Source: Chromobacterium phragmitis
GTDB taxonomy: Bacteria > Pseudomonadota > Gammaproteobacteria > Burkholderiales > Chromobacteriaceae
DNA length: 64,000 nucleotides
Reading direction: 5' to 3'
Assembly: GCF_003325475.1 (NCBI RefSeq)
Contig: NZ_CP029495.1
Location: 2,631,353 to 2,695,352 of the forward strand
Part shown: in pieces, positions 6,586-54,787 of the stretch
How positions within the stretch are numbered: position 1 is the first letter of the stretch
How the letters are laid out: each line of letters opens with the position of its first letter
Position numbers and translations under genes: made by a program
The notes under the pieces: generated by a model
Database searches by the model: none
Seen by the model: only the letters and a program-made list of their open reading frames with translations
What the model was told of the DNA's origin: nothing

Positions 6586-6679
6586 GGAGAAATGGCCGAG
6601 TGGTCGAAGGCACTTCCCTGCTAAGGAAGCATACGGGCTTAAACCTGTATCGAGGGTTCGAATCCCTCTTTCTCCGCCA
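6586..6679 (+). tRNA. tRNA-Ser (anticodon GCT)
   Basis: Cloverleaf with long variable arm, anticodon loop cuGCUaa, T-loop GGTTCGAATCC, 3' CCA encoded. Confidence 0.85.
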
Positions 6680-6685
6680 GATGCC

Positions 6686-6762
6686 GCACCCGTAGCTCAG
6701 TTGGATAGAGTATCTGGCTACGAACCAGAGGGTCGGGCGTTCGAATCGCTCCGGGTGCACCA
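6686..6762 (+). tRNA. tRNA-Arg (anticodon ACG)
   Basis: GCACCCGTAGCTCAGTTGGATAGAGT… with anticodon loop cuACGaa; T-loop GTTCGAATC; CCA encoded. Confidence 0.85.
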
Positions 6763-6766
6763 AGAC

Positions 6767-6841
6767 GTCCCTATAGTTTAGCGGTTAGAACACCGCCCTT
6801 TCACGGCGGTGGCCGGGGTTCGATTCCCCGTGGGGACGCCA
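6767..6841 (+). tRNA. tRNA-Glu (anticodon TTC)
   Basis: GTCCCTATAGTTTAGCGGTTAGAACACC… with anticodon loop cuTTCac; T-loop GGTTCGATTCC; CCA encoded. Confidence 0.85.
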
Positions 6842-6855
6842 GGATTCAGAAAAAG

Positions 6856-6883
6856 CCTCGTATGAAAATACGAGGTTTTTTTT
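6856..6883 (+). terminator. Rho-independent terminator after the + tRNA array
   Basis: Hairpin CCTCGTA-tgaaaa-TACGAGG followed by a T8 tract. Confidence 0.75.
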
Positions 6884-7312
6884 ATCCAGATCAATGACAT
6901 TGGCATTGCGGTTTCGGCATTTTATCTTGTGCTGGTGGTGTCGGACTTTTGATTCGGTTCCAGCCTGGTTTGGCGGCTATGCGGCGGGTGATTGTTGCGC
7001 GCCGCTGATTTCTTTTGGGGTGAGAGCGCGGGTCTGTTGTTTGTGCTTGCTTGTGTTTTGGTCGTCGGGTGTCGGTTGCTGTCGTCCGGTGGGATTTGGC
7101 GTGGCTGCTTGGTGTCATTCTTTGCGTAGTGGCGGATTTGGGTCGGCTTACGATGCTCTTCGGGGTGGTTGTTTCGGTTTTGTGGGGCGGGTGTTGTCAT
7201 TGCCGGTGGTGGCGTTGGATTTGAGATGGGTGTGGGTTGGCGTGGGGATTTGTTTGAGCGTGGAGTGCGCGGCGAGTCTGTCATTCTGAGGTGGGGTGCG
7301 GCGGCGAGGGGA

Positions 7313-7343
7313 AAGAAAAAAGCCTCGTATTTTCATACGAGGC
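7313..7343 (-). terminator. Rho-independent terminator after the - tRNA array (mirror copy of the + terminator)
   Basis: Hairpin GCCTCGTA-tttca-TACGAGGC with a T-tract on the minus strand. Confidence 0.7.
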
Positions 7344-7356
7344 TTTTTCTGAATCC

Positions 7357-7431
7357 TGGCGTCCCCACGGGGAATCGAACCCCGGCTACCGCCGTGAAAG
7401 GGCGGTGTTCTAACCGCTAAACTATAGGGAC
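7357..7431 (-). tRNA. tRNA-Glu (anticodon TTC)
   Basis: Reverse complement of the + strand tRNA-Glu with one substitution. Confidence 0.85.
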
Positions 7432-7434
7432 AGC

Positions 7435-7511
7435 TGGTGCACCCGGAGCGATTCGAACGCCCGACCCTCTGGTTCGTAGCCAGATACTCTATCCAACTGA
7501 GCTACGGGTGC
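7435..7511 (-). tRNA. tRNA-Arg (anticodon ACG)
   Basis: Reverse complement identical to the + strand tRNA-Arg. Confidence 0.85.
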
Positions 7512-7516
7512 AGCTT

Positions 7517-7591
7517 TGGCGTCCCCACGGGGAATCGAACCCCGGCTACCGCCGTGAAAGGGCGGTGTTCTAACCGCTAAACTATAGGGAC
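7517..7591 (-). tRNA. tRNA-Glu (anticodon TTC), second copy
   Basis: Same sequence as 7357-7431. Confidence 0.85.
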
Positions 7592-7600
7592 GCTGAGTTG

Positions 7601-7677
7601 TGGTGCACCCGGAGCGATTCGAACGCCCGACCCTCTGGTTCGTAGCCAGATACTCTATCCAACTGAGCTACGGGTGC
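7601..7677 (-). tRNA. tRNA-Arg (anticodon ACG), second copy
   Basis: Same sequence as 7435-7511. Confidence 0.85.
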
Positions 7678-7714
7678 ACTGTTTCGCGAGACGCTGTGTC
7701 TTGCGAGAGGTCGA

Positions 7715-7743
7715 ATACTACAGATAGGCGTTTTGGCTGTCAA
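7715..7743 (-). promoter_or_regulatory. Sigma-70-type promoter for the - strand tRNA array (TTGACA-N17-TAGTAT on the minus strand)
   Basis: Reverse complement of 7738-7743 is TTGACA and of 7715-7720 is TAGTAT, 17-nt spacing, about 35 nt upstream of tRNA-Arg at 7677. Confidence 0.6.
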
Positions 7744-7867
7744 CACCTCATAGGCTTTTTTTTGCAAAGCCGGTAAACTCGACGGCTGTCCTTGTCGCGG
7801 CACGCCAACATTTTCAGACATTTGGCATGCTGGCCGCGAAGTTGCGAGACATGAAAGCGAAGCGAGA

Positions 7868-8458
7868 TTGAATAACCTGTTTGCACAACCCTGCGCCATC
7901 GTCGACCTGGAAACCACCGGCGGCAACATCGCGCGAGACCGCATCACGGAAGTCGGCATGGTGCTGATAGATGGCGAGCGCGTCGAGCGTCTGTCCTGGT
8001 TGGTCAATCCGGGACAACCGATTCCCCCCTTCATTGAGAATATGACCGGCATCAGCAATGAAATGGCAGCCGCCGCGCCGCCGTTTTCGGCGCTGGCCGA
8101 TGACTTGCTGTCCCGGTTGCAAGGGCGGCTCTTGCTGGCGCACAACGCCCGCTTCGATTACGGTTTCCTGAAAAACGAATTCCGCCGGCAGGGGCTGCGT
8201 TTCCAGGCGCGCGCGCTATGCACCGTCAAGCTGTCGCGCCGCCTGTACCCGCAGCATTTCAAGCACAGCCTGGATAGCCTTATCGCCCGCCATGGCATTG
8301 CGATGCCGGAACGCCACCGCGCGCTGGCCGATGCCGAGGCGGTGTATCGCTTCATCCAGATCGCGAGCGCGGAGCTGGGCGAAGACAAGGTGGCGCATGA
8401 GGCGTCGCAGTTGCTGTCGCAGCCTGCCGAATTGTCCAGTCTCCCGGCTGATCTGTAG
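7868..8458 (+). CDS. DEDDh 3'-5' exonuclease domain protein (DNA pol III epsilon-like)
   Basis: Exo I motif DLETTG, Exo II HNARFD, Exo III H…ALADA. 196 aa. Ends at a TAG that is in frame with the next ORF. Confidence 0.8.
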   Translation: MNNLFAQPCAIVDLETTGGNIARDRITEVGMVLIDGERVERLSWLVNPGQPIPPFIENMTGISNEMAAAAPPFSALADDLLSRLQGRLLLAHNARFDYGFLKNEFRRQGLRFQARALCTVKLSRRLYPQHFKHSLDSLIARHGIAMPERHRALADAEAVYRFIQIASAELGEDKVAHEASQLLSQPAELSSLPADL

Positions 8459-39409: not shown

Positions 39410-40027
39410 TTAGGATGCAGGCCGGAAGCGCTCGCCGTGGAACACCCGGAGGGGATTGCCGCGCTCAACCTCCCAGTGCAGCTGGCGGCGGCGGCCGCGC
39501 AGGTCGGCGTCGGCCTGCTCGGCAAGCTCGCCCAGTTTGTGGGCCAACAGCAACAGCGCCAGCCGTTTGTTGGCGTGCTGGCTGCGTTCGCTTTGCACGC
39601 GGACGCTGACGCCGCTGGCCAGATGCACGGCGCGGACCGCGGATTCGGTCTTGTTGACGTGCTGGCCGCCGGGGCCGGAGGCGCGGCAGGTTTCGATGCG
39701 CACCTCGCCGCCGCCGGCCGGGGCGGGCGTTTCGCAGCGCGCGACGCCGACGAACCAGTTCTTGCGCGGATGGCGCGGCCGGTACGGGCTGGAGCAGGTC
39801 CATTGGATGGTGCCGATCCAGGCGGCGGCCAGCGCATCTTCGGCCTCGCCGTCCAGCGCCAGCAGCGCCGAGCGCACGGTTCCGGCGCGGGGACCGGGTT
39901 CGCTTTCCAGCAGCGCGGCCTTCACGCCGGCGGCGTGCGCCTCGGCTTGCAGCCGGGACAGCGTCTTGGCCGCGGCCAGCGCGCATTCGTCGGGGCCTTG
40001 GGCGGCGGTGATCTGCAGCAATATCAT
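39410..40027 (-). CDS. prfH: Peptide chain release factor H (RF2 paralogue, GGQ domain)
   Basis: 205 aa from MILLQITAAQGPDECALA…, which matches the PrfH N-terminus pattern. GGQ motif GPGGQHVNKTESAV. ATGA overlap with the rtcB2 stop. Confidence 0.85.
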   Translation of the reverse strand: MILLQITAAQGPDECALAAAKTLSRLQAEAHAAGVKAALLESEPGPRAGTVRSALLALDGEAEDALAAAWIGTIQWTCSSPYRPRHPRKNWFVGVARCETPAPAGGGEVRIETCRASGPGGQHVNKTESAVRAVHLASGVSVRVQSERSQHANKRLALLLLAHKLGELAEQADADLRGRRRQLHWEVERGNPLRVFHGERFRPAS

Positions 40028-41271
40028 CAGCAGCACTCCCCGCGCGTCTTGTAGCTCAGCACCGGACGCAGCCGCGCCAACAGCTCGATCAGGCCGGCGC
40101 GGCGCAGCGCGTCCACCACGCTGTCCACCGGCTTGTACGCTTCCGGCGCCTCTTCGTAGATCAGCTCGCGGTCGCGGCAGATCACGTGGCTGCCCAGCTT
40201 GGTTCGGGATAGCTGCGCCGGGGTGTAGCGGCGCGACAGCCTGTCCTTGCACTCGCTGCGCATCCATTTCCGTCCCGCGCCGTGCGCCAGAGAGTACAGG
40301 CTGGCGGCCTGGGGCAAGGGACGCGCCAGGTAGCTGAAGTCGCCGCGCGAGCCGGGGATCACCACCGCGCCGGCGTCGGCCGGCGTGGCGCCCTTGCGGT
40401 GCAGCCAGCCGTCCAAGCCGTCTACTCGGGACGGCAGCACCAGGTTGTGGTGGATGTCCAGCACGGGCTCGCCTTCGGCGCGCAGCCTATCCAGCATGCG
40501 GCGCGCGATCAGCTCGCGGTTCGCCTCGGCGAAGCGCAGCGCGTCGCCGTGGCGCGCCAGGTAGGCGCGGCAGGCGTCGCCGCCGCTTTCCAGTCCGCGG
40601 TGGCCGTATTGGTCCACATGCTCGCGCAGGATGGCCTGGCCCAGGCCGCGGGAGCCGCTGTGCGCCAGCAGCAGCAGCCGGCGCGGGTCTATCGCCAGCG
40701 TGCCGAGCGCGGCCTCGTCGTATACCTCGTCAATCCGCTGCAGTTCGGCGAAATGATTGCCGCCGCCTATGGTGCCCAGCGCGGAGCGGAAGCCGATGTG
40801 CGCCGGCAGCAGCGCGTCGGCTTGCTCGCGCCATTCGTCGGACAGCGGGCCGTCCAGGTCGCCCAGGCGCTTGTCCAGTTTCTCGGGCTGGCTCTTGCGC
40901 GCGTCTAGCGAGGTTTGCCACAGCGCCATGCCGCAGCCGATGTCGCCGCCTATCAGCGCCGGATACAGCCTGCCGACGGAGAAAAACGCCGCGCCGACAG
41001 GGTAGCCGCGGCCGGGATGCAAATCCGGCATGCCGGCCACGCGGCGCATGCCGGGCAGGGCGGCGGTGGTTTGAAGTTGCTGGATCGCGTTGCCTTCGAT
41101 CCAGGTGTCGTCCGAGGCGATCAGGGTGACGCCTTCAGACAGTTGCTGAATGCAGTGGGTATTGCCCATGAAATTCCAAATCAGGTCAGTCTGAAAAGGC
41201 AGGCGGGCTTGGGGTGATGCGAAAACGCGCGTCAGCGCGGGAAAGAAACGATCAACCTTGCAGGCCTGCAT
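40027..41271 (-). CDS. rtcB: RtcB-family RNA ligase paralogue (RtcB2, PrfH-associated)
   Basis: 414 aa with RtcB motifs (DIGCGM; GGGNHF; HGAGR). Highly diverged from the first RtcB in this window. Confidence 0.85.
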   Translation of the reverse strand: MQACKVDRFFPALTRVFASPQARLPFQTDLIWNFMGNTHCIQQLSEGVTLIASDDTWIEGNAIQQLQTTAALPGMRRVAGMPDLHPGRGYPVGAAFFSVGRLYPALIGGDIGCGMALWQTSLDARKSQPEKLDKRLGDLDGPLSDEWREQADALLPAHIGFRSALGTIGGGNHFAELQRIDEVYDEAALGTLAIDPRRLLLLAHSGSRGLGQAILREHVDQYGHRGLESGGDACRAYLARHGDALRFAEANRELIARRMLDRLRAEGEPVLDIHHNLVLPSRVDGLDGWLHRKGATPADAGAVVIPGSRGDFSYLARPLPQAASLYSLAHGAGRKWMRSECKDRLSRRYTPAQLSRTKLGSHVICRDRELIYEEAPEAYKPVDSVVDALRRAGLIELLARLRPVLSYKTRGECC

Positions 41272-44474: not shown

Positions 44475-44873
44475 ATGGCCATTCTATCCTTGCATGCCTC
44501 GCAACAGCGGCCGCGCCCAGGCTTTCTTGCCGGCCTGTCCCGGCTGTGGCGCCATCGCCGGGCCGAGGCGGACACCGCGGCCGCGCCCCGCAAGGCGAAC
44601 CTGAGCGACATCACCGCCGGCGAGGCCCAGGCCGTGATCGGCGAATGGCTGAAAGCCGGCCGCCTCACCCCTGCCGAAAGCCGCAGCCTGGGCCTGGCGA
44701 TGACCATCCGCGTGCTCAACATCAGCTATGGCCATTCGATACCGGAGCGCTTCGATCTGGTGGCGGAAACGCTGAGCACGCTGGAAGGCAGCCGGAATAT
44801 CGGCTGCTGGGACCAGGTGCAGGCCTTGAGCCACTGCCTGGAGGTGATGCGCGCCTACCAGGAGCAAGCCTGA
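44475..44873 (+). CDS. Hypothetical protein
   Basis: 132-aa ORF with GC3-rich codon usage and GGAGAAGG SD 6 nt upstream. No recognisable motifs. Confidence 0.45.
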   Translation: MAILSLHASQQRPRPGFLAGLSRLWRHRRAEADTAAAPRKANLSDITAGEAQAVIGEWLKAGRLTPAESRSLGLAMTIRVLNISYGHSIPERFDLVAETLSTLEGSRNIGCWDQVQALSHCLEVMRAYQEQA

Positions 44874-45357
44874 TCGGGCTTGGCCATCGGTATGCCGGCG
44901 GGCGCGCAGGGTGTCGGCCTTATCGCGCATGCGCGCCCCGGCAATAGGGCTGAATGATGGATATCACCAGCGTCTTTGCCTCTGCGGACAACTGATTGGA
45001 CCGGATAGCGCGGCGCGGCTTTCCGCGGCGGGAGGCCGGCAGCCCCTGTCGCGCAAGGCAGGCGAATCTGTCGATGCGCCAGGACTCAGAGTGGCAAACA
45101 AAAATCCTGATGCTGCGTCGCGCCGGCTTGGCGTACGCCTTGTGTTGCGCTGCGTCGGCGCGCCATGCCTCAGACGTAAAACTGAATTTTGTAAGCCGCT
45201 CTAAGCACAAACCGCATGAAGACGCCGTTTCCTATCTTTCCGTCCTAAAGCACGGCTTGCCGAATTTCTATTTGGACTAGAGTGGCGGGGCTCAAGCAAG
45301 AATGCCGAGCGTCAAGATCGCAAGCCCGCATGCAGCTTCCACTCAAGGAGTGACGAT

Positions 45358-46449
45358 ATGTCATCGCAATTTCATGGCCTGGCTGTAGGAAACGGAAATA
45401 GCAATTATCTGCAGGTGCTGGGATTGGCCAATTTCACGGACGCCGCCTATCTGACGGACTGGCAGGACTCCAGCGGCAACTGGCACGCCGGCTTCGCCTT
45501 GCCGGTTCCGTCCGATTATCCGAAGGGGCACTTTTTCCAACTGACGACCGGCATCGGCAACAGCAGCTATCTGCAGGTATTGGGCGCGGGCGAGGACGGC
45601 AACCCCTATCTGGTGTCATGGCAGGACGGCGGCGGCAGCTGGCACGGCGGCATGCCGCTTCCCAAGCCCAGCGGCTACAGCGGCGGCCCCCTGATCACCG
45701 GCTCCGGCAACAGCAACTACCTGCAGGTGATCGGCGCGCGGGTGGAAACCACGCCTTATCTGGTGGCTTGGCAGGACAATAGCGGCAACTGGCACGCGGG
45801 CATGCCGCTGCCCAACCCCAGCGGCTATGCCGGCGGTTTCCAGCAATTGGCCACCGGCAACGGCAACGACCACTACTTGCAAGTGGTGGGCGTGGGCAAT
45901 GACGGCAACGCCTATCTGGTGAACTGGCAGGACAACAGCGGCAGCTGGCACCCTGGCTTCGCGCTGCCCAAGCCCAGCGGCTACAACGGCACCTTCACGC
46001 AGCTGGCCACCGGCGTGGGCAACAGCAATTATCTGCAGGTGCTGGGCATCGGCACCGACGGCAACGCCTATCTGGTGGCCTGGCAGGACAACGGCGGCAA
46101 CTGGCACCCTGGCTTCGCGCTGCCCAAGCCCAGCGGTTACAACGGCACTTTCGCCAAGTTGGTCACCGGCATCGGCAACAGCAATTACCTGCAGGTGTTC
46201 GGCATCGGCGGCAATGGGACGGCCTATCTGATCTCGTGGCAGGACAACGGCGGCAACTGGCACGGCGGCCTGACGCTGCCGCAGCCGTCCGGCTACAGCG
46301 GCAGCTTCTCGCAATTGGCCGCCGGCAATGGCAACAACCATTATCTGCAGGTGGTGGGCTCCGACGCGCAAGGCAATGTCTACCTGGTGTCGTGGCAAGA
46401 CGCCGAGGGCAAGTGGCACGCCGGTTTCGAGCTGCCGAAAACGGCTTGA
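45358..46449 (+). CDS. Eight-repeat beta-propeller lectin-like protein (AAL/RSL-type fucose-lectin-like blades)
   Basis: 363 aa consisting almost entirely of eight tandem repeats of about 45 aa: [L]-x-TG-x-GNSNYLQV-x-G-x-G-x-DGN-x-YLV-x-WQDN-x-GNWH-x-G-x-x-LP-x-PSGY-x-G. The W-D-x-x-G-x-W-x-x-G core resembles blade motifs of Aleuria/Ralstonia fucose lectins. No signal peptide. Confidence 0.7.
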   Translation: MSSQFHGLAVGNGNSNYLQVLGLANFTDAAYLTDWQDSSGNWHAGFALPVPSDYPKGHFFQLTTGIGNSSYLQVLGAGEDGNPYLVSWQDGGGSWHGGMPLPKPSGYSGGPLITGSGNSNYLQVIGARVETTPYLVAWQDNSGNWHAGMPLPNPSGYAGGFQQLATGNGNDHYLQVVGVGNDGNAYLVNWQDNSGSWHPGFALPKPSGYNGTFTQLATGVGNSNYLQVLGIGTDGNAYLVAWQDNGGNWHPGFALPKPSGYNGTFAKLVTGIGNSNYLQVFGIGGNGTAYLISWQDNGGNWHGGLTLPQPSGYSGSFSQLAAGNGNNHYLQVVGSDAQGNVYLVSWQDAEGKWHAGFELPKTA

Positions 46450-46501
46450 CGCCAAGCTGAGCCAAGGATTCCGGTTGGCGCGGACCGGCCGGATCGAACG
46501 C

Positions 46502-46537
46502 CAGGCCCTCCTTGATCGGGAGGGCCTGTTGTTTTGA
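46502..46537 (+). terminator. Rho-independent terminator after the beta-propeller gene
   Basis: CAGGCCCTCC-ttgatcg-GGAGGGCCTG followed by TTGTTTT. Confidence 0.75.
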
Positions 46538-46552
46538 AGCGATTCGGGCGGT

Positions 46553-46972
46553 TCAGTCCTGGGCCGGGCCTTGCTTTTTGGGAAGCCGGGGATCCATGAA
46601 GTCCCAGGGCGCGGCGCTGGCCACGTGGAAATCCAGCTTGGGCGCGTAGCGCGAGGCATCATCCAGCGTGCCGGCCTTGATGCCCAGCATGCCGGGGAAG
46701 CGGCTGAACCTGGCGAACAATTGCGAGCCGCAATGGGGACAAAAGCCCCGGCCGTGGGTATGGCCGCTATCCGCGGTGGTTTCGAAATACTTGGCCGCGC
46801 CGTGGATCGCAACGCTCGACTCGGGAAACAGCATGGCGGGGATGAACGCGCCGCCCGAACTTCTCTGGCAGTCCTTGCAATGGCAGTTTCCCGCGAATAA
46901 CGGCTCGGCGTCCACGACATAGCGGATTTCGCCGCAAAGGCACTGCCCGGTGTATTGGCAACTCATGCACAA
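46553..46972 (-). CDS. GFA-family (CENP-V/glutathione-dependent formaldehyde-activating enzyme-like) zinc protein
   Basis: 139 aa with the Cys-rich GFA pattern (CLCGEI…CHCKDCQRSSG…CPHCGS). Confidence 0.75.
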   Translation of the reverse strand: MCMSCQYTGQCLCGEIRYVVDAEPLFAGNCHCKDCQRSSGGAFIPAMLFPESSVAIHGAAKYFETTADSGHTHGRGFCPHCGSQLFARFSRFPGMLGIKAGTLDDASRYAPKLDFHVASAAPWDFMDPRLPKKQGPAQD

Positions 46973-47243
46973 CTCCCTGCTGATTGGTCATGGCCATTGC
47001 GTCGGCACCGCGTATCAATGGTGGCTGGCCGATGCGGCAAACCCGTTTCGAGAGCAGTCAGCCTGCGCGCGGAGCGGCGACGAATGGCGAAAGCAGACTA
47101 TATCCATTTGGAATTGCGCTGTGAAGCGCTTGGCGGGCAGCCGCCGCATTTCGGCAAGACGCGGCCGGGGCCGGATTGGCCTGGCGGGCGTCATGAGCCC
47201 GCGGCGCGGGTGATGCCATGGGCCGCCAAGCCCGGACTGGCGA

Positions 47244-47768
47244 TCATGCCCACCAGGTGAATCGCTGGTTGGCTCCGCCGTGGCAATCCCACAGAATCAG
47301 CGGCGTGCCATTGCGGGTATTGCCGCCTTCCGCATCCAGGCACAGCCTGTTCAGCTTGCTGCGCATCATGCCGTTGGCCCATTCCCACTGCTGGTTCCTG
47401 CCGCCATGGCAGGCATAGGCGATGACTTTGGCGCCCCGGCGGGTATCGCCGCCGGCCACATCCAGGCACAGGTTGCCGGATTTGAGCTGGCCATTGACCA
47501 GGCGGAAGCGCTGATTGCCGCCGCCATGGCAATCCCATAGCTGCAGCGGCGCATTGGCGGCGCTGCCGCCGGCAAGGTCCAGGCAGCGGCCGCCGCTGGC
47601 CAGCAGCATGCGCGGCTGAGTTTCCGGCTGGTACGGTTTCCTGGCGGAGGAATTGGCCGGGTAGCCGTAGGGGTAGGCGGCGCCGGCTTGCATGTTTTGA
47701 TTGGCCAGGGTGCGGCAGCCGCTGCTGGCAAGCGCGGCTCCCATCATGACGAAGGCGATGAGTTTCAT
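47244..47768 (-). CDS. Lipoprotein with ricin-B (beta-trefoil) lectin domain
   Basis: Signal + lipobox (ASSGC), three (QxW)-type subrepeats (LQLWDCHGGGNQRF; IAYACHGGRNQQWEW; LILWDCHGGANQRFTW). Confidence 0.75.
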   Translation of the reverse strand: MKLIAFVMMGAALASSGCRTLANQNMQAGAAYPYGYPANSSARKPYQPETQPRMLLASGGRCLDLAGGSAANAPLQLWDCHGGGNQRFRLVNGQLKSGNLCLDVAGGDTRRGAKVIAYACHGGRNQQWEWANGMMRSKLNRLCLDAEGGNTRNGTPLILWDCHGGANQRFTWWA

Positions 47769-47982: not shown

Positions 47983-48700
47983 GATCAAAAACAGCCTGCC
48001 GCTGGGAAGCGGACAGGTTGACGGTGTTTATGGCGCGTGATTTAGAGGACGCGGGTGAGGAGCGTCAGCGACTCGCCCATGCGTTTGTCCAGCGGCTCTA
48101 GCAATTCCTTGATGCGGCTGGGCTGCAGGCTGGCGTCGTATAAGCGTAGGGTGCAATACCCGGCTTGAAACGATTGGATGTAACTACCTTTCAGCCGGGC
48201 ATTGCACCACTTTGGCATTCCGCGAAATCAAAACCAGCCTGCCGCTGGGAAGCGGACAGGCTGTCGGTGTTTATGGCGCGTGATTTATTAGAGGACGCGG
48301 GTGAGCAGCGACAGAGACTCGCCCATGCGTTTGTCCAGCGGCGCCAGCAACTCGGTGATGCGGCTGGAGGGCAGACGGACGTCGTAAGCGTAGGGTGCAA
48401 TACCCGGCTTGAAACGATTGGATGCAGCCATCTTGCAGCCGGGCATGGCAGCGTCTTGGCATTCCGCGAAATCAAAAACAGCCTGCCGCTAAGAAGCGGA
48501 CAGGCTGTCGGTGTTTTGGCGCGTGGTTTAGAGGACGCGGGTGAGCAGCGACAGCGACTCCCCCATGCGTTTGTCCAGCGGCGCCAGCAACTCGGTGATG
48601 CGGCTGGAGGGCAGGCGCACGTCATCGCCCAGGCAAGCGAGCAGTTCGATGACTGACTGCAAACCCAACTGGCCGTGGGCGAGGTGGCAGATGGGCTCCA
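47983..48700. repeat. About 2.9 tandem copies of a roughly 240-bp unit: terminator hairpin + last 30 codons of the downstream gene + stem-loop spacer
   Basis: Stop-codon landmarks at 48042, 48288 and 48528 (periods 246 and 240 bp). Each unit carries CAGCCTGCCGCTGGGAAGCGGACAGGCTG hairpin + A-tract (a terminator on the minus strand). Copies are 85-95% identical. Confidence 0.8.
48288..48431 (-). CDS. Possible 47-aa mini-ORF created by the middle repeat copy (new N-terminus fused to the conserved C-terminal 31 aa)
   Basis: ATG at 48431 (minus strand) reads MAASNRFKPGIAPYAYDVRLPSSRITELLAPLDKRMGESLSLLTRVL*. The C-terminal 31 aa (DVRLPSS…LTRVL) are identical to those of the 48528-48824 gene. No obvious SD. 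Could equally be a silent relic. Confidence 0.25.
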   Translation of the reverse strand: MAASNRFKPGIAPYAYDVRLPSSRITELLAPLDKRMGESLSLLTRVL

Positions 48701-48824
48701 CCACCGCCTGCTCGATGTCCCGGCATAAATGCGCCACGCGCGCGGCCGGCTCTCTTACCTTTGCTTGGTCTTTGCTGGCCAATTGTTCTTGCAAGGCGGC
48801 AAAGGCTTCGTGCAGCCGGGTCAT
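48528..48824 (-). CDS. Hypothetical small protein (98 aa from MTRLHEAF…)
   Basis: ORF with GC3-rich codons whose 3' end is the source (or target) of the upstream tandem repeat. Start placed at the internal Met. Confidence 0.5.
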   Translation of the reverse strand: MTRLHEAFAALQEQLASKDQAKVREPAARVAHLCRDIEQAVVEPICHLAHGQLGLQSVIELLACLGDDVRLPSSRITELLAPLDKRMGESLSLLTRVL

Positions 48825-49801
48825 GGCCAGCAGGCTGGGCGGATGGGTGGGGACTTGATTGTGCAGCAGCCAGCGGCTGCGGGCGGGATGACGGTTGTTC
48901 AGGGAAAACGCGAGATGCGATGAACTGCGGGTGATGCTAGGCATGGCAAAACCCTCCTGGATAGGTGCTTAACCCTGCCAACCCCAACGCCAAGTAGGGG
49001 TGGCAGGCACATGGCGGGATTGGCGTACCGATCCAGGAGCGGCGCATCATAGATGCTCCCACCATGGCCCGCCATAGAGGACGTGCAATGGTGTACGGAC
49101 GCGACAAGGCCCAGCCTTGCACAGAAGTCCGCCTGAATGCGGGACGCCAATCCCGGTGCCGCTATTGAACGGCACGATTGAGATTATCCGGCTGGAAGGC
49201 TTGCTAGGCAAGCAATTGGGGCTGGAATAGGGTGTGCTTTGGGGCAGTACGTAGAATCCGCTGCGCGGCTGATGGTTTGGATTGCCGGGGTTGCCCGGCG
49301 GCAGGCTTGAAGGGATTGGGGCGCGTCGCAAACGCGCTTGCGTTTTGCCAGCGATGAATAGGGCATGACATTTTGCCGTGGCTTGCTTAATCGGTAGCTG
49401 AACCGAACCGACTTGCCCCCATCCCATCAGCGCAAGCCGACTTCGGAGCCATTTTCAAGGTTTTAAGACGCCGGTTTGTTCGACGTCGCGCGACGGTAGC
49501 GCGCGGCTAGTTCCGGCGGCTCCTTGAAAATGGCTTCGGAGGCGGGGTTTCGCAGCGCTGTTGGGTCGCCTTTTCTTTCGTCCATTTCTTTTGGCGAAGC
49601 AAAAGAAATGGACCCGTCCAGCCGGGCGGAACCGGCACTTAACGGTCAGTCCGCGAAGCGGACACAAACTAATCTGTATTACGTGGTAGCCGTTTGACCT
49701 TGGTGGCTCAGTCGCGATTTGCGGACTTTAAACGAATTGCGAACTTCAAGCTTTGCTAGGCTAGTGAATGAATTATAATTTTATTGAGTGAAAAGGTGAA
49801 A

Positions 49802-49829
49802 TAAAAAAGCACTTGTTTCTCAAGTGCTT
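49802..49829 (-). terminator. Rho-independent terminator ending the AT-rich island operon
   Basis: AAGCACTTG-agaaa-CAAGTGCTT + T-tract on the minus strand. Confidence 0.75.
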
Positions 49830-49860
49830 CCGAGTGCGGAGCTTTACTTTATTGGGTTGG

Positions 49861-50190
49861 CTAACTATTTTTAATGAGATCTTTCTTTTCAACTTCTTGG
49901 CTTTCAATATTTCTTTTTGTCTCTTTGAAAGCCTGAACAAAACTGTTAATGAGTTTTTCTCTCTTGTTATTCGTTGGTGACAGTTTTTCTCTGCATGATG
50001 TTTTTTCTATTTTCCACCCAGTCCTTATTTTTTCTTTTTTGGTGGCTGGTAAAGAGCTGTTCTCTATTGATCTAAATGATTTAACTTGAGGTAGCGATGA
50101 GCGTAGAGCTTTGTCTAGCTCTATAATAAATATTCTTTCTGACTCGGTTGGAGCTCTAAGTTTATTAATTTTTGCCATTTTTATCTCCAT
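49861..50190 (-). CDS. Lys/Glu-rich hypothetical protein, distal gene of the AT-rich island
   Basis: 109 aa, strongly AT-biased codons, 15 bp downstream of the 570-aa gene on the same strand. Confidence 0.5.
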   Translation of the reverse strand: MEIKMAKINKLRAPTESERIFIIELDKALRSSLPQVKSFRSIENSSLPATKKEKIRTGWKIEKTSCREKLSPTNNKREKLINSFVQAFKETKRNIESQEVEKKDLIKNS

Positions 50191-50205
50191 AATGAGCTGT
50201 GGAAA

Positions 50206-51918
50206 TTAACCTAGCCACTGAGCTGGATTGCTAATTTTCAGTGGCTCAGCCCCCATAAGTTCAAATCTGACAGCATTGTCATCAGTACGATTATCCATCG
50301 TTACCTGTTGACTCTGCATTGCCGCTAAAGATAAAAGAAAGCCATGATGGCGATCTGGCAATATCAAATGTTGAGTCTTTCCCGTGTGGTGCTTCCAAAG
50401 GGCGACGGAGCGAACTCCGTTAGTTTCTTGTCGATTTGATCTATCTACCATCGCGGCAGAAGTAACACTTAAAATTGCTGATCCGGGGTCATCAGCTAGT
50501 ACTGTTGCATAACGAGCCGGCCAGCGTGTTGTGAGCTGTGGCCCATCCATCAGTAATGCTATCACGAGGTTGGGTCCGATAGCTCGTACAGCAGGAAGTG
50601 CGGGATCGTTACGTGCCAAATCCTCACATACCAAGACGGCTATACACGCATCTCTCTGGATTGTATAGAACGGTAGATGTCTTTCTGCCACGTCAATGTG
50701 CTCCCACCAGTCAACATTACTGTCTGCCGGGAATGATGAAAAGTTGTAACGTTGCGTTTGTGCAACATCAAGCTTCCATCTGTGATGCTTTGAGTGTTCG
50801 TATTGAAAAAATTCCTCATTATCAACAAGGAAATATGACATTGCTTTGTTTTTTGGGATTTTATTTGGAACGCTACTTATAACACCTGAAATTAAAATTC
50901 TAAGGCCATTTATATATTCATCCCTAGCTAAAATACGAGCGAGCTCATATGAAACCTCTTCAGTCAGTGAACACTCTGGGAAGATAACACAATCAATTTT
51001 TTTGTAGTGTCTTCTTGATTCAAGTAGAAGAGGTTTGACAAGATCATTGTATATATTCTTGGCAATTTCACATGGTTGCTCTTTTCCAAAACCTGGTATC
51101 CAAGATGGGTCTAGTTCAAAGTAGCCAAATTTTTTAATATTTTTCTTACTCGCTTTGGGGGGACATCTTGGTCTTATTGCAGTCGCTTTCATTTCAAATG
51201 GATACGGGATGAATAGAGCATTAAATCTTGTTTCGTCAGATAATAGAAAGTTTTCAGGGCTTAAAGATTCGACATTTTGCAATGAGTTCCAAGAAATTTT
51301 CAGCTTAGGCTGAGCTTCATGAAGTGCAAGGTGATGACTTAAAGATCGAATTGAAAATCCTACGGATGGGCATATTGACTTTGGTGTGACTACAGCTCTT
51401 TGGGGAGGTATTGCGTAGCATAAGGAGAATGGAAAGTATGGAGGCCTAAGGCATTCAAGTTTTTGACTTGTAATTGCCTGTAAGTTATCTATTTTCATTA
51501 ATTTTGGGAAGAGCAGTCCGCTAAAAACGGAGTCTTGAAAGTCTAATCCCCAACCTAACCCTGCTGAAGCTTCGTCAGAGCAAGTAAATAAAAAATGTAT
51601 TTCTGAGACTAATTTCTCATCTCTATATATTTGATCAATTGCAGTTAATCTTTTCTTGTAGATGTAAGACCAGCTTCTTTTTATTTCTGAAGGAGGAGAG
51701 AAATTATCTTTCCATTCTGAGGCTACGGATGATATTGACTTCCTGCGAGTAAACTTTTTGGGATTTAAAAGGACGGCTTTTTCCATTATGGTTGCAGTAA
51801 AAGCAAACGTATCTGATGGCCAAGATGGACAATTTTCTACGGATTTTCCAAAGTTAAAATTTTCATTACTTTGTGTCCCATTTGGGAATAGAAATTCTAT
51901 CATGTCTTGTATGTTCAT
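50206..51918 (-). CDS. Large hypothetical protein of the AT-rich island; C-terminal half has a candidate nitrilase/CN-hydrolase-like Glu-Lys-Cys triad
   Basis: 570 aa uninterrupted ORF in a region of about 35-40% G+C (estimate by eye). Motifs VIFPE (E315), YEHSKHH (K377) and VLVCEDL (C431), spaced as in the nitrilase superfamily. N-terminal 300 aa show no recognisable domain. Confidence 0.55.
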   Translation of the reverse strand: MNIQDMIEFLFPNGTQSNENFNFGKSVENCPSWPSDTFAFTATIMEKAVLLNPKKFTRRKSISSVASEWKDNFSPPSEIKRSWSYIYKKRLTAIDQIYRDEKLVSEIHFLFTCSDEASAGLGWGLDFQDSVFSGLLFPKLMKIDNLQAITSQKLECLRPPYFPFSLCYAIPPQRAVVTPKSICPSVGFSIRSLSHHLALHEAQPKLKISWNSLQNVESLSPENFLLSDETRFNALFIPYPFEMKATAIRPRCPPKASKKNIKKFGYFELDPSWIPGFGKEQPCEIAKNIYNDLVKPLLLESRRHYKKIDCVIFPECSLTEEVSYELARILARDEYINGLRILISGVISSVPNKIPKNKAMSYFLVDNEEFFQYEHSKHHRWKLDVAQTQRYNFSSFPADSNVDWWEHIDVAERHLPFYTIQRDACIAVLVCEDLARNDPALPAVRAIGPNLVIALLMDGPQLTTRWPARYATVLADDPGSAILSVTSAAMVDRSNRQETNGVRSVALWKHHTGKTQHLILPDRHHGFLLSLAAMQSQQVTMDNRTDDNAVRFELMGAEPLKISNPAQWLG

Positions 51919-52021
51919 AATTTCTCTCTCAACAATCTCTTCCCGAAATTTCTATACCCGTATAGGTATATGGATTTTTTACCGTGGTGTGACTTTATAA
52001 GTAGGTATTTTAATGAATGAA

Positions 52022-53679: not shown

Positions 53680-54787
53680 TTAGACGCCGTGCTTGAGGCT
53701 GGCTTCGATGAAGCCGTCCAGGTCGCCGTCCATGACGCCCTTGATGTTGCCCACTTCGTAGCTGGTGCGCAAATCCTTGATGCGGGACTGGTCGAACACG
53801 TAGGAGCGGATCTGGTGGCCCCAGCCCACGTCGGTCTTGGTGTCTTCCAGCGCCTGCTTGGCCTCGTTGCGCTTCTTGAGCTCCAGCTCGTACAGTTTGG
53901 CGCGCAGCATCTGCCAGGCCTCGTCGCGGTTGCGGTGCTGGGAACGGTCGTTCTGGCACTGCACCACGATATTGGTCGGGATGTGGGTCAGACGCACGGC
54001 GGAGTCGGTCTTGTTGATGTGCTGACCGCCGGCGCCGGAGGCGCGGTAGGTATCGGTGCGCACGTCCGCCGGGTTGATGTCGATCTCGAAGCTGTCGTCC
54101 ACTTCCGGATACACGAACACCGACGAGAACGAGGTGTGGCGGCGGGCGTTGGAGTCGAACGGCGACACGCGCACCAGGCGGTGCACGCCCACTTCGGTGC
54201 GCAGCAGGCCGTAGGCGTATTCGCCCTCTATCTTCAGCGTGGCGCTGGTGACGCCGGCCACTTCGCCTTCGGACAGTTCCAGCACGTCCACCTTGAAGCC
54301 CTTGCGCTCGGCGTAGCGGGTGTACATGCGCAGCAGCATGCCGGCCCAGTCCTGGGCTTCGGTGCCGCCGGCGCCGGCCTGGATGTCGATGAAGCAGTTG
54401 GTCGGGTCCATCGGGTCGTGGAACATGCGGCGGAATTCCATCTTCGCCACTTTCTCTTCCACTTCTTCCAGATCGGCCTGAACCGCGAGGATGGTGTCGT
54501 CGTCTTCCTCGCTCTTGCCCATGTCGAACAGTTCGCGGCTGTCGCCGATGGTGGCGTTGATGCTGTCCAGCACCAGCACCACGTCTTCCAGCTGTTTGCG
54601 TTCGCGGCCCAGATCCTGCGCCTTTTTGGGGTCGTTCCAGATATCCGGGTCTTCGGTCAGGCGGCTGACTTCTTCCAGACGGTCTTTTTTACCGTCGTAG
54701 TCAAAGATACCCCCGAATATCGGCGGCGCGGGCGGCCAGGTCTTCGATTTTGGCCGCGATTTGGTTCAAAACTTCAACTTCGATCAT
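53680..54787 (-). CDS. prfB: Peptide chain release factor 2 with programmed +1 frameshift
   Basis: Frame 0 from ATG 54787: [28 protein letters not shown] then in-frame TGA within AGG GGG TAT CTT TGA C (minus strand, about 54703-54718). +1 frame continues [12 protein letters not shown]… through the SPF/GGQ domain ([16 protein letters not shown]). Classic prfB-lysS operon. Confidence 0.92.

Follow-up and report, generated by a model that had tools for sequence, protein, structure and literature searches.

A CV39L-type seven-bladed propeller lectin gene of Chromobacterium phragmitis and its ricin-B neighbour

A 64,000-nucleotide stretch of Chromobacterium phragmitis DNA (contig NZ_CP029495.1 of assembly GCF_003325475.1, positions 2,631,353 to 2,695,352; the window, whose own numbering is used throughout) carries a gene for a 363-residue protein built of tandem repeats and, beyond it on the opposite strand, a gene of the GFA family (CENP-V/GFA zinc-binding) followed by one for a 174-residue lipoprotein. 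An earlier note on this DNA, made from the letters alone, had called these three open reading frames, taken the first product for a beta-propeller lectin and the last for a ricin-B lipoprotein with the GFA gene between the two, and proposed that the propeller had eight blades. The frames, their positions and the lectin type of both proteins were borne out (Table 1), and we concentrate below on what the repeat protein is, how many blades it would form and whether its proximity to a second lectin gene means anything.

Identity, repeats and fold of the 363-residue protein

The repeat protein was cut at its motif anchors. YLQV, WQD and WHxG each occur in exactly seven copies, delimiting units of 48–54 residues (modal length 52) that share the per-blade motif G-x-G-N-x-x-Y-L-Q-V ... 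Y-L-x-x-W-Q-D-x-x-G-x-W-H-x-G-x-x-L-P, and Tandem Repeats Finder returned periods of 156 nt (52 codons) and 312 nt on the gene. These counts refute the eight repeats of 45 residues described earlier, a figure that is simply 363 divided by an assumed unit. The repeats had also been called regular, which they are, and near-identical, which they are not: protein identity between pairs of repeats is 49–81% (mean 61%) and DNA identity 57–84% (mean 70%). Variation in repeat number, which it had been suggested to look for, was absent among orthologues, all 12 full-length ones being 363 residues long and colinear; shorter database entries of 343 and 356 residues exist and may reflect alternative start calls.

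Searching all PDB sequences with phmmer matched residues 2–362 to entry 6GXS, ‘CV39L lectin’, with E 3.3e-229. The NCBIfam equivalog NF052350, ‘CV39L family lectin’, covers residues 2–359 at 441.6 bits (cut-off 350) and the generic ‘beta propeller lectin’ domain model NF052348 scores 326.5 bits (cut-off 200), whereas the score against the equivalog for BP39L of Burkholderia pseudomallei, NF052349, is 104.5 bits, below its cut-off of 400. Neither phmmer nor a profile of 17 family sequences matched any PDB sequence other than 6GXS; BP39L (6GXR) and the PLL family were reached by fold comparison only. The identical sequence is deposited in NCBI for C. phragmitis as a ‘hypothetical protein’ (WP_114061792.1/AXE30698.1). 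Eleven orthologues from C. violaceum, C. piscinae and C. vaccinii are likewise 363 residues long, colinear and 89.5–90.9% identical, and include CV39L itself (Q7NZ70 of C. violaceum ATCC 12472; 90.6% identity without an indel). The ratio of nonsynonymous to synonymous substitution rates (dN/dS) of the gene against three orthologues is 0.11–0.13, indicating that it is real and under purifying selection. The family is small, with about 305 cluster representatives of 1.84 billion at E≤0.001, and many of the distant homologues are long multidomain proteins of 600–1700 residues.

An AlphaFold2 model built from the 17 family sequences (mean predicted local distance difference test, pLDDT, 92.2; predicted template modelling score, pTM, 0.91) settled the blade number that the earlier note had proposed to check in this way: it has 28 beta-strands, four per repeat, and hence seven blades. 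The top Foldseek match in the PDB is again 6GXS, itself seven-bladed, at a template modelling (TM) score of 0.98, a root mean square deviation (rmsd) of 1.0–1.3 Å and 90–91% identity. The modelled chain opens on strand 1 of blade 1 and finishes on the final strand of blade 7 (residues 353–358), so that each repeat would be one whole blade. This agrees with the ‘CRD repeats’ (carbohydrate-recognition domain) arrangement in which one repeat makes a complete blade, and which a 2024 review (PMC11186620), where it sets out the propeller classes, gives for PropLec7C and PropLec6A only. Seven blades are the normal architecture of the CV39L family, and the structurally unusual propeller that had been suggested was not borne out.

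The earlier note had also pointed to a resemblance to the fucose lectins AAL, RSL and BambL, and on this reading the protein would be an unprecedented eight-bladed lectin of 45-residue, AAL-type fucose-binding blades. Those lectins (with FleA, class PropLec6A, Pfam PF07938) are indeed beta-propellers whose repeated blade motif contains Trp, there is a loose likeness between the W-x-x-x-G-x-W core and AAL/RSL blades, and six-bladed AAL, FleA, AOL and AofleA occur, low in the ranking, among the Foldseek matches with E ~1e-6. However, these matches have TM scores of ~0.5 and 12–15% (typically ~13%) identity, against 0.98 for 6GXS, PF07938 gave no match at E≤1, and seven motif copies, seven sets of four strands and the 52-residue period do not accommodate eight blades. 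Kinship with the AAL group thus fails, and the eight-blade reading, to which we assign next to no likelihood, is already refuted by the repeat count and the match to a solved orthologue.

Outside the CV39L family, the best structural matches are PLL, PHL and PLL2–5 of Photorhabdus (TM 0.74–0.78, Foldseek E ~1e-13, probability 1.0), soluble seven-bladed lectins of ~350–370 residues with one repeat per blade position that, according to PDB entry titles and the review, bind fucose and related sugars. They differ in sequence (16–19% identity; rmsd 3.3–5.5 Å), and the review, in its classification, keeps them apart as PropLec7A, with a repeat-to-blade arrangement other than that of PropLec7C. The PLL-like Pfam model gave no match at E≤1 for the propeller or at E≤0.01 for the 17 family members, and a precomputed PF26607 label stands on one distant homologue (P0011) only. 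The propeller and the PLL-like lectins are of the same fold and of different families. BP39L is seven-bladed, belongs to the same lectin class as CV39L and shares the generic NF052348 model, but differs from the C. phragmitis protein in a structural alignment (23% identity, TM 0.76).

In conclusion, we put at roughly 93% the probability that the 363-residue protein is the C. phragmitis orthologue of CV39L, a seven-bladed propeller of class PropLec7C, and that the ricin-B gene is an independently inherited neighbour. There is thus nothing new in the feature itself, the orthologue at the same chromosomal position having been crystallised and the protein falling under a curated NCBIfam equivalog.

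Sugar binding and export of the propeller

The same review assigns CV39L and BP39L to PropLec7C, names L-fucose and mannose as the sugars bound and proposes ‘host recognition’ as the role, and a preprint refers in passing to 6GXS as a ‘fucose binding lectin’. Our literature search on C. phragmitis returned nothing on its lectins. Several points weigh against the CV39L reading of the present protein. Ligands for the class are known to us from a table in the review and the single line of the preprint; the description of 6GXS is that of the lectin structure with no ligand, its binding-site positions being putative; and Pfam holds no model for the CV39L family. Specificity or valency could, moreover, differ from that of CV39L, given substitutions at 34 of the 363 residues, eight of them in blade 4. 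The Pfam matches that were obtained with the propeller and 16 homologues (S_locus_glycop at 29 bits, DUF3024, DUF1918 and Shisa_N) were weak, driven by the repeats and without an individually significant stretch, and we rejected them as spurious.

The earlier note had found no signal peptide on the propeller, and this holds: the N-terminus has no hydrophobic stretch, the maximum Kyte–Doolittle value (10-residue window) in the first 35 residues being 1.21, compared with 2.41 in the lipoprotein. The protein also has no cysteine, and from both properties we would expect it to be made in the cytoplasm. Several well-studied soluble bacterial lectins also lack a signal peptide.

A cytoplasmic location predicted from sequence would equally suit a propeller that is not a lectin in vivo but a scaffold or a binder of something other than carbohydrate, the published weak sugar binding then being incidental; the multidomain character of many distant homologues and the lack of a CV39L ligand complex among the PDB matches point the same way. 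We nevertheless consider this very unlikely. The closest structural relatives outside the family, PLL, PHL and PLL2–5, are all lectins with sugar complexes, both NCBIfam and the review class the family as lectins, and, as noted above, the missing signal peptide has parallels among soluble bacterial lectins. The searches did not assign the repeats to any non-lectin propeller family, which the earlier note had named beforehand as the outcome that would tell against it, and its view of the repeat protein as a propeller lectin stands.

In the model, the seven tandem repeats of ~52 residues each fold into one four-stranded blade and together close into a seven-bladed propeller. Which sugars such a lectin binds, how many of its sites work, how it leaves the cell and what it targets are matters of inference. 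By analogy with CV39L, BP39L and PLL/PHL, its repeated Trp-rich loops (W-Q-D-x-x-G-x-W-H) would provide up to seven weak monosaccharide sites, and this multivalency may confer high apparent affinity for glycan-covered surfaces. Made in the cytoplasm, the protein would presumably reach its targets by lysis or by non-classical release, as is presumed for other soluble bacterial lectins.

The ricin-B lipoprotein and the surrounding locus

The lipoprotein was assigned by PF00652 (E 4.4e-28, 98.4 bits against a gathering score of 29) and by the NCBIfam model lectin_2 (135.6 bits, cut-off 100). In the PDB it is closest to the CBM13 xylan-binding domains of xylanases from Streptomyces (1KNL, E 1.4e-22). 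In the structural model, residues 52–174 form a 12-strand trefoil with pLDDT 95–98 and residues 1–50 are disordered (pLDDT ~55); Foldseek superposes the trefoil on 1KNL over 123 residues with TMt 0.90, rmsd 1.0 Å and 42% identity. The motifs QRF, QQW and QRF lie at residues 86, 126 and 168 and there are three Cys pairs, each of the three subdomains keeping a Cys pair, the aspartate of CLD and N-Q-x-W/F, as in CBM13 of Streptomyces lividans xylanase 10A (1KNL/1KNM). By comparison with the established ricin-B/CBM13 sites, all three pockets could be functional. Unlike the xylanase domain, the C. phragmitis trefoil stands alone, without a catalytic domain, and is preceded by a lipoprotein signal and a linker. 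The N-terminus, MKLIAFVMMGAALASSG-C18, contains a signal peptide ending in LASSGC, and the lipobox cysteine is conserved in six of seven homologues (LASGGC, LAGSGC, IAVSGC and LMVTGC among their lipoboxes). We therefore predict an envelope-tethered lipoprotein bearing a CBM13-like lectin domain with three intact subdomains. The sequence is that of WP_198414535.1, a C. phragmitis ‘lectin’; a 167-residue version is also present in NCBI and, as no clear Shine–Dalgarno sequence precedes the gene, its start codon is ambiguous. No contigs encoding the 167-residue entry were retrieved. Close relatives of the protein are confined to a few Chromobacterium species.

Table 1. Features of the lectin locus and other observations in the window, in window positions
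Feature	Position	Strand	Basis or remark
tRNA cluster, inverted array pair: Ser-Arg-Glu (+) facing Glu-Arg-Glu-Arg (-)	6586..7677	+/-	
RtcB ligase gene overlapping RF-1-domain open reading frame	39410..41271	-	
orf132, orphan directly upstream of lectin gene	44475..44873	+	
Shine–Dalgarno AAGGAG, 7 nt 5' of lectin ATG	45345..45350	+	Read from sequence
CV39L-family lectin gene, 363 residues, Cys-free, no signal peptide, seven-bladed beta-propeller (predicted)	45358..46449	+	Open reading frame list, PDB, NCBIfam, model
Blade/repeat 1, residues 5–58	45370..45531	+	Motif anchors; strands 5–12, 18–24, 30–36, 42–47
Blade/repeat 2, residues 59–110	45532..45687	+	Anchors, repeat alignment, model
Blade/repeat 3, residues 111–160	45688..45837	+	Anchors, repeat alignment, model
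Blade/repeat 4, residues 161–212	45838..45993	+	3' part looks gene-converted from blade 5
Blade/repeat 5, residues 213–264	45994..46149	+	Likely donor of conversion tract
Blade/repeat 6, residues 265–316	46150..46305	+	Anchors, repeat alignment, model
Blade/repeat 7, residues 317–363	46306..46446	+	Anchors; last strand ends chain
Terminator-like hairpin between convergent lectin and GFA genes	46502..46528 (with T-run 46502..46538)	+	Consensus scan
GFA-family gene, 139 residues	46553..46972	-	PF04828
Ricin-B (CBM13-like) beta-trefoil lipoprotein gene, 174 residues	47244..47768	-	PF00652
Beta-trefoil, residues 52–174	47247..47615	-	
Disordered linker, residues 19–51 (~33 residues)		-	
Signal peptide and lipobox, residues 1–18	47715..47768	-	
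Three tandem ~244-nt copies: 3' end of DUF1484 gene plus hairpin	47984..48716		
Intact DUF1484 gene	48528..48944	-	
C4 antisense RNA match	48996..49079	-	Rfam RF01695, 53.4 bits (gathering 45)
isrK and c4-a1b1 target-like matches	49121..49187		Weak
Low-GC island	about 49500..52000		GC 0.35–0.48 vs 0.58–0.70 around
Island open reading frame, 109 residues	49861..50190	-	Orphan
Island open reading frame, 570 residues	50206..51918	-	Orphan
Release-factor open reading frame	53680..54582	-	Starts at PCRF profile position 44

The earlier note had read the co-localisation of the two lectin genes as a glycan-recognition locus, and the corresponding hypothesis is that propeller and lipoprotein are co-regulated and act on the same host or fungal target. 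The two genes do lie within 2.4 kb of each other in C. phragmitis, and consecutive accession numbers suggest that the adjacency recurs in other strains of the species. However, it is not conserved among Chromobacterium species. C. piscinae, C. vaccinii and C. violaceum retain the order short-chain dehydrogenase (SDR)–GNAT–DZR–orf132–lectin–GFA, with no ricin-B gene in the 6–8 kb of flanking sequence analysed; conversely, the C. amazonense locus has a ricin-B gene of 67% identity adjoining DZR and lacks orf132, lectin and GFA. From the occurrence of each lectin gene without the other, we conclude that each has been acquired and lost independently of the other, at a place in the chromosome that varies, and that their adjacency is coincidental. 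The C. violaceum locus resembles the one described here in having DZR and orf132 upstream of CV39L and GFA downstream and differs, besides lacking the ricin-B gene, in an additional, unannotated and unrelated 246-residue gene without a Pfam domain between lectin and GFA (7373..8113 of locus L003), absent from the window, which is a further sign of an indel-prone spot.

The arrangement within the window argues in the same direction. The two genes are on opposite strands with the unrelated GFA gene between them, a promoter-like site lies in the 271-nt spacer upstream of the GFA gene, and the lectin gene is followed by a terminator-like hairpin (an 11-bp stem with eight GC pairs, then a T-run), although such hairpins were called by a consensus scan whose count does not exceed the expectation from shuffled sequence. 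Among the neighbours there is no glycosidase, transporter or sugar regulator that would mark a glycan-utilisation island. A co-regulated two-lectin locus is, on this evidence, quite unlikely.

The GFA protein matches PF04828 (E 4.5e-32, 111 bits against a gathering score of 24.3). With 18 bits against a cut-off of 234.55 it was rejected as a true S-(hydroxymethyl)glutathione synthase, and it is probably a syntenic bystander whose function is unrelated to the lectin. For orf132 there was no PDB, Pfam, NCBIfam or PADLOC match, and a word-indexed search gave no homologue outside C. phragmitis; tblastn, by contrast, showed C. piscinae, C. vaccinii and C. violaceum, whose lectins are ~90% identical, to have orthologues of 46–48% identity upstream of the lectin gene. 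In the five other loci compared, the presence or absence of orf132 follows that of the lectin, the lectin-less locus of C. amazonense having none, and it appears to be a fast-evolving, genus-restricted orphan that alone tracks the lectin. Those of the remaining neighbours that have a family assignment belong to housekeeping or general metabolism (RtcB and an RF-1-domain protein, the short-chain dehydrogenase, the GNAT acetyltransferase, a class II (D/K/N-type) aminoacyl-tRNA synthetase, a release factor with PCRF and RF-1 domains, a malate/lactate dehydrogenase and a GntR regulator), and several open reading frames have no assignment.

Some features further afield in the window were also recorded (Table 1). 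Beyond the lipoprotein gene lie three tandem copies of a unit made up of a DUF1484 3' end and a hairpin, together with an intact DUF1484 gene and, just upstream of it on the same strand, a C4 antisense RNA match; the loci of C. violaceum and C. amazonense are likewise flanked by arrays of DUF1484 paralogues. A low-GC island separates this region from the gene for the class II aminoacyl-tRNA synthetase. Its two orphan open reading frames gave no Pfam, NCBIfam or PDB match and a single faint one to a defence model, namely to the nitrilase portion of RT_UG5-nitrilase (E 0.004). The corresponding position in C. piscinae is occupied by other DNA, and the island may be a horizontally acquired defence-type gene. 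The overlap of the RtcB gene with the RF-1-domain frame resembles an RtcB–PrfH pair, and the start of the release-factor frame beside the aminoacyl-tRNA synthetase gene, well inside the PCRF profile, would presumably fit the programmed +1 frameshift of prfB.

Blade 4 and what the locus adds

The blade with the most differences from the orthologues is blade 4, which holds eight of about 34. Its loop reads WQDNSGSWH, the canonical form, whereas C. violaceum (CV39L), C. piscinae and C. vaccinii have the degenerate WQNAQGQWS. A 60-nt segment encoding this loop is identical to the protein's own blade 5 at 56 of 60 positions in C. phragmitis and at 40–42 of 60 in the three other species, and over the whole blade the corresponding figures are 131 of 156 nt and 116–120 of 156; a CCT codon is common to blades 4 and 5 in C. 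phragmitis only. These sequence comparisons are most simply read as a short tract of blade 5 having been copied into blade 4 by intragenic gene conversion within the lineage of C. phragmitis; all seven blades would thereby be canonical. It is conceivable, and in our view unlikely, that by restoring a seventh canonical WQD...WH site the conversion created a natural variant of higher valency which, with the species-specific and envelope-tethered ricin-B lectin two genes away, would give C. phragmitis a distinct recognition of host or prey glycans.

For the annotation of the species, the gain is that the ‘hypothetical protein’ of C. phragmitis records can become a ‘CV39L family lectin’, and little beyond that. 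The apparently restored blade-4 motif is a small new detail, albeit one that makes CV39L and the C. phragmitis protein a ready-made natural pair for lectin engineers interested in how an extra site may affect avidity.

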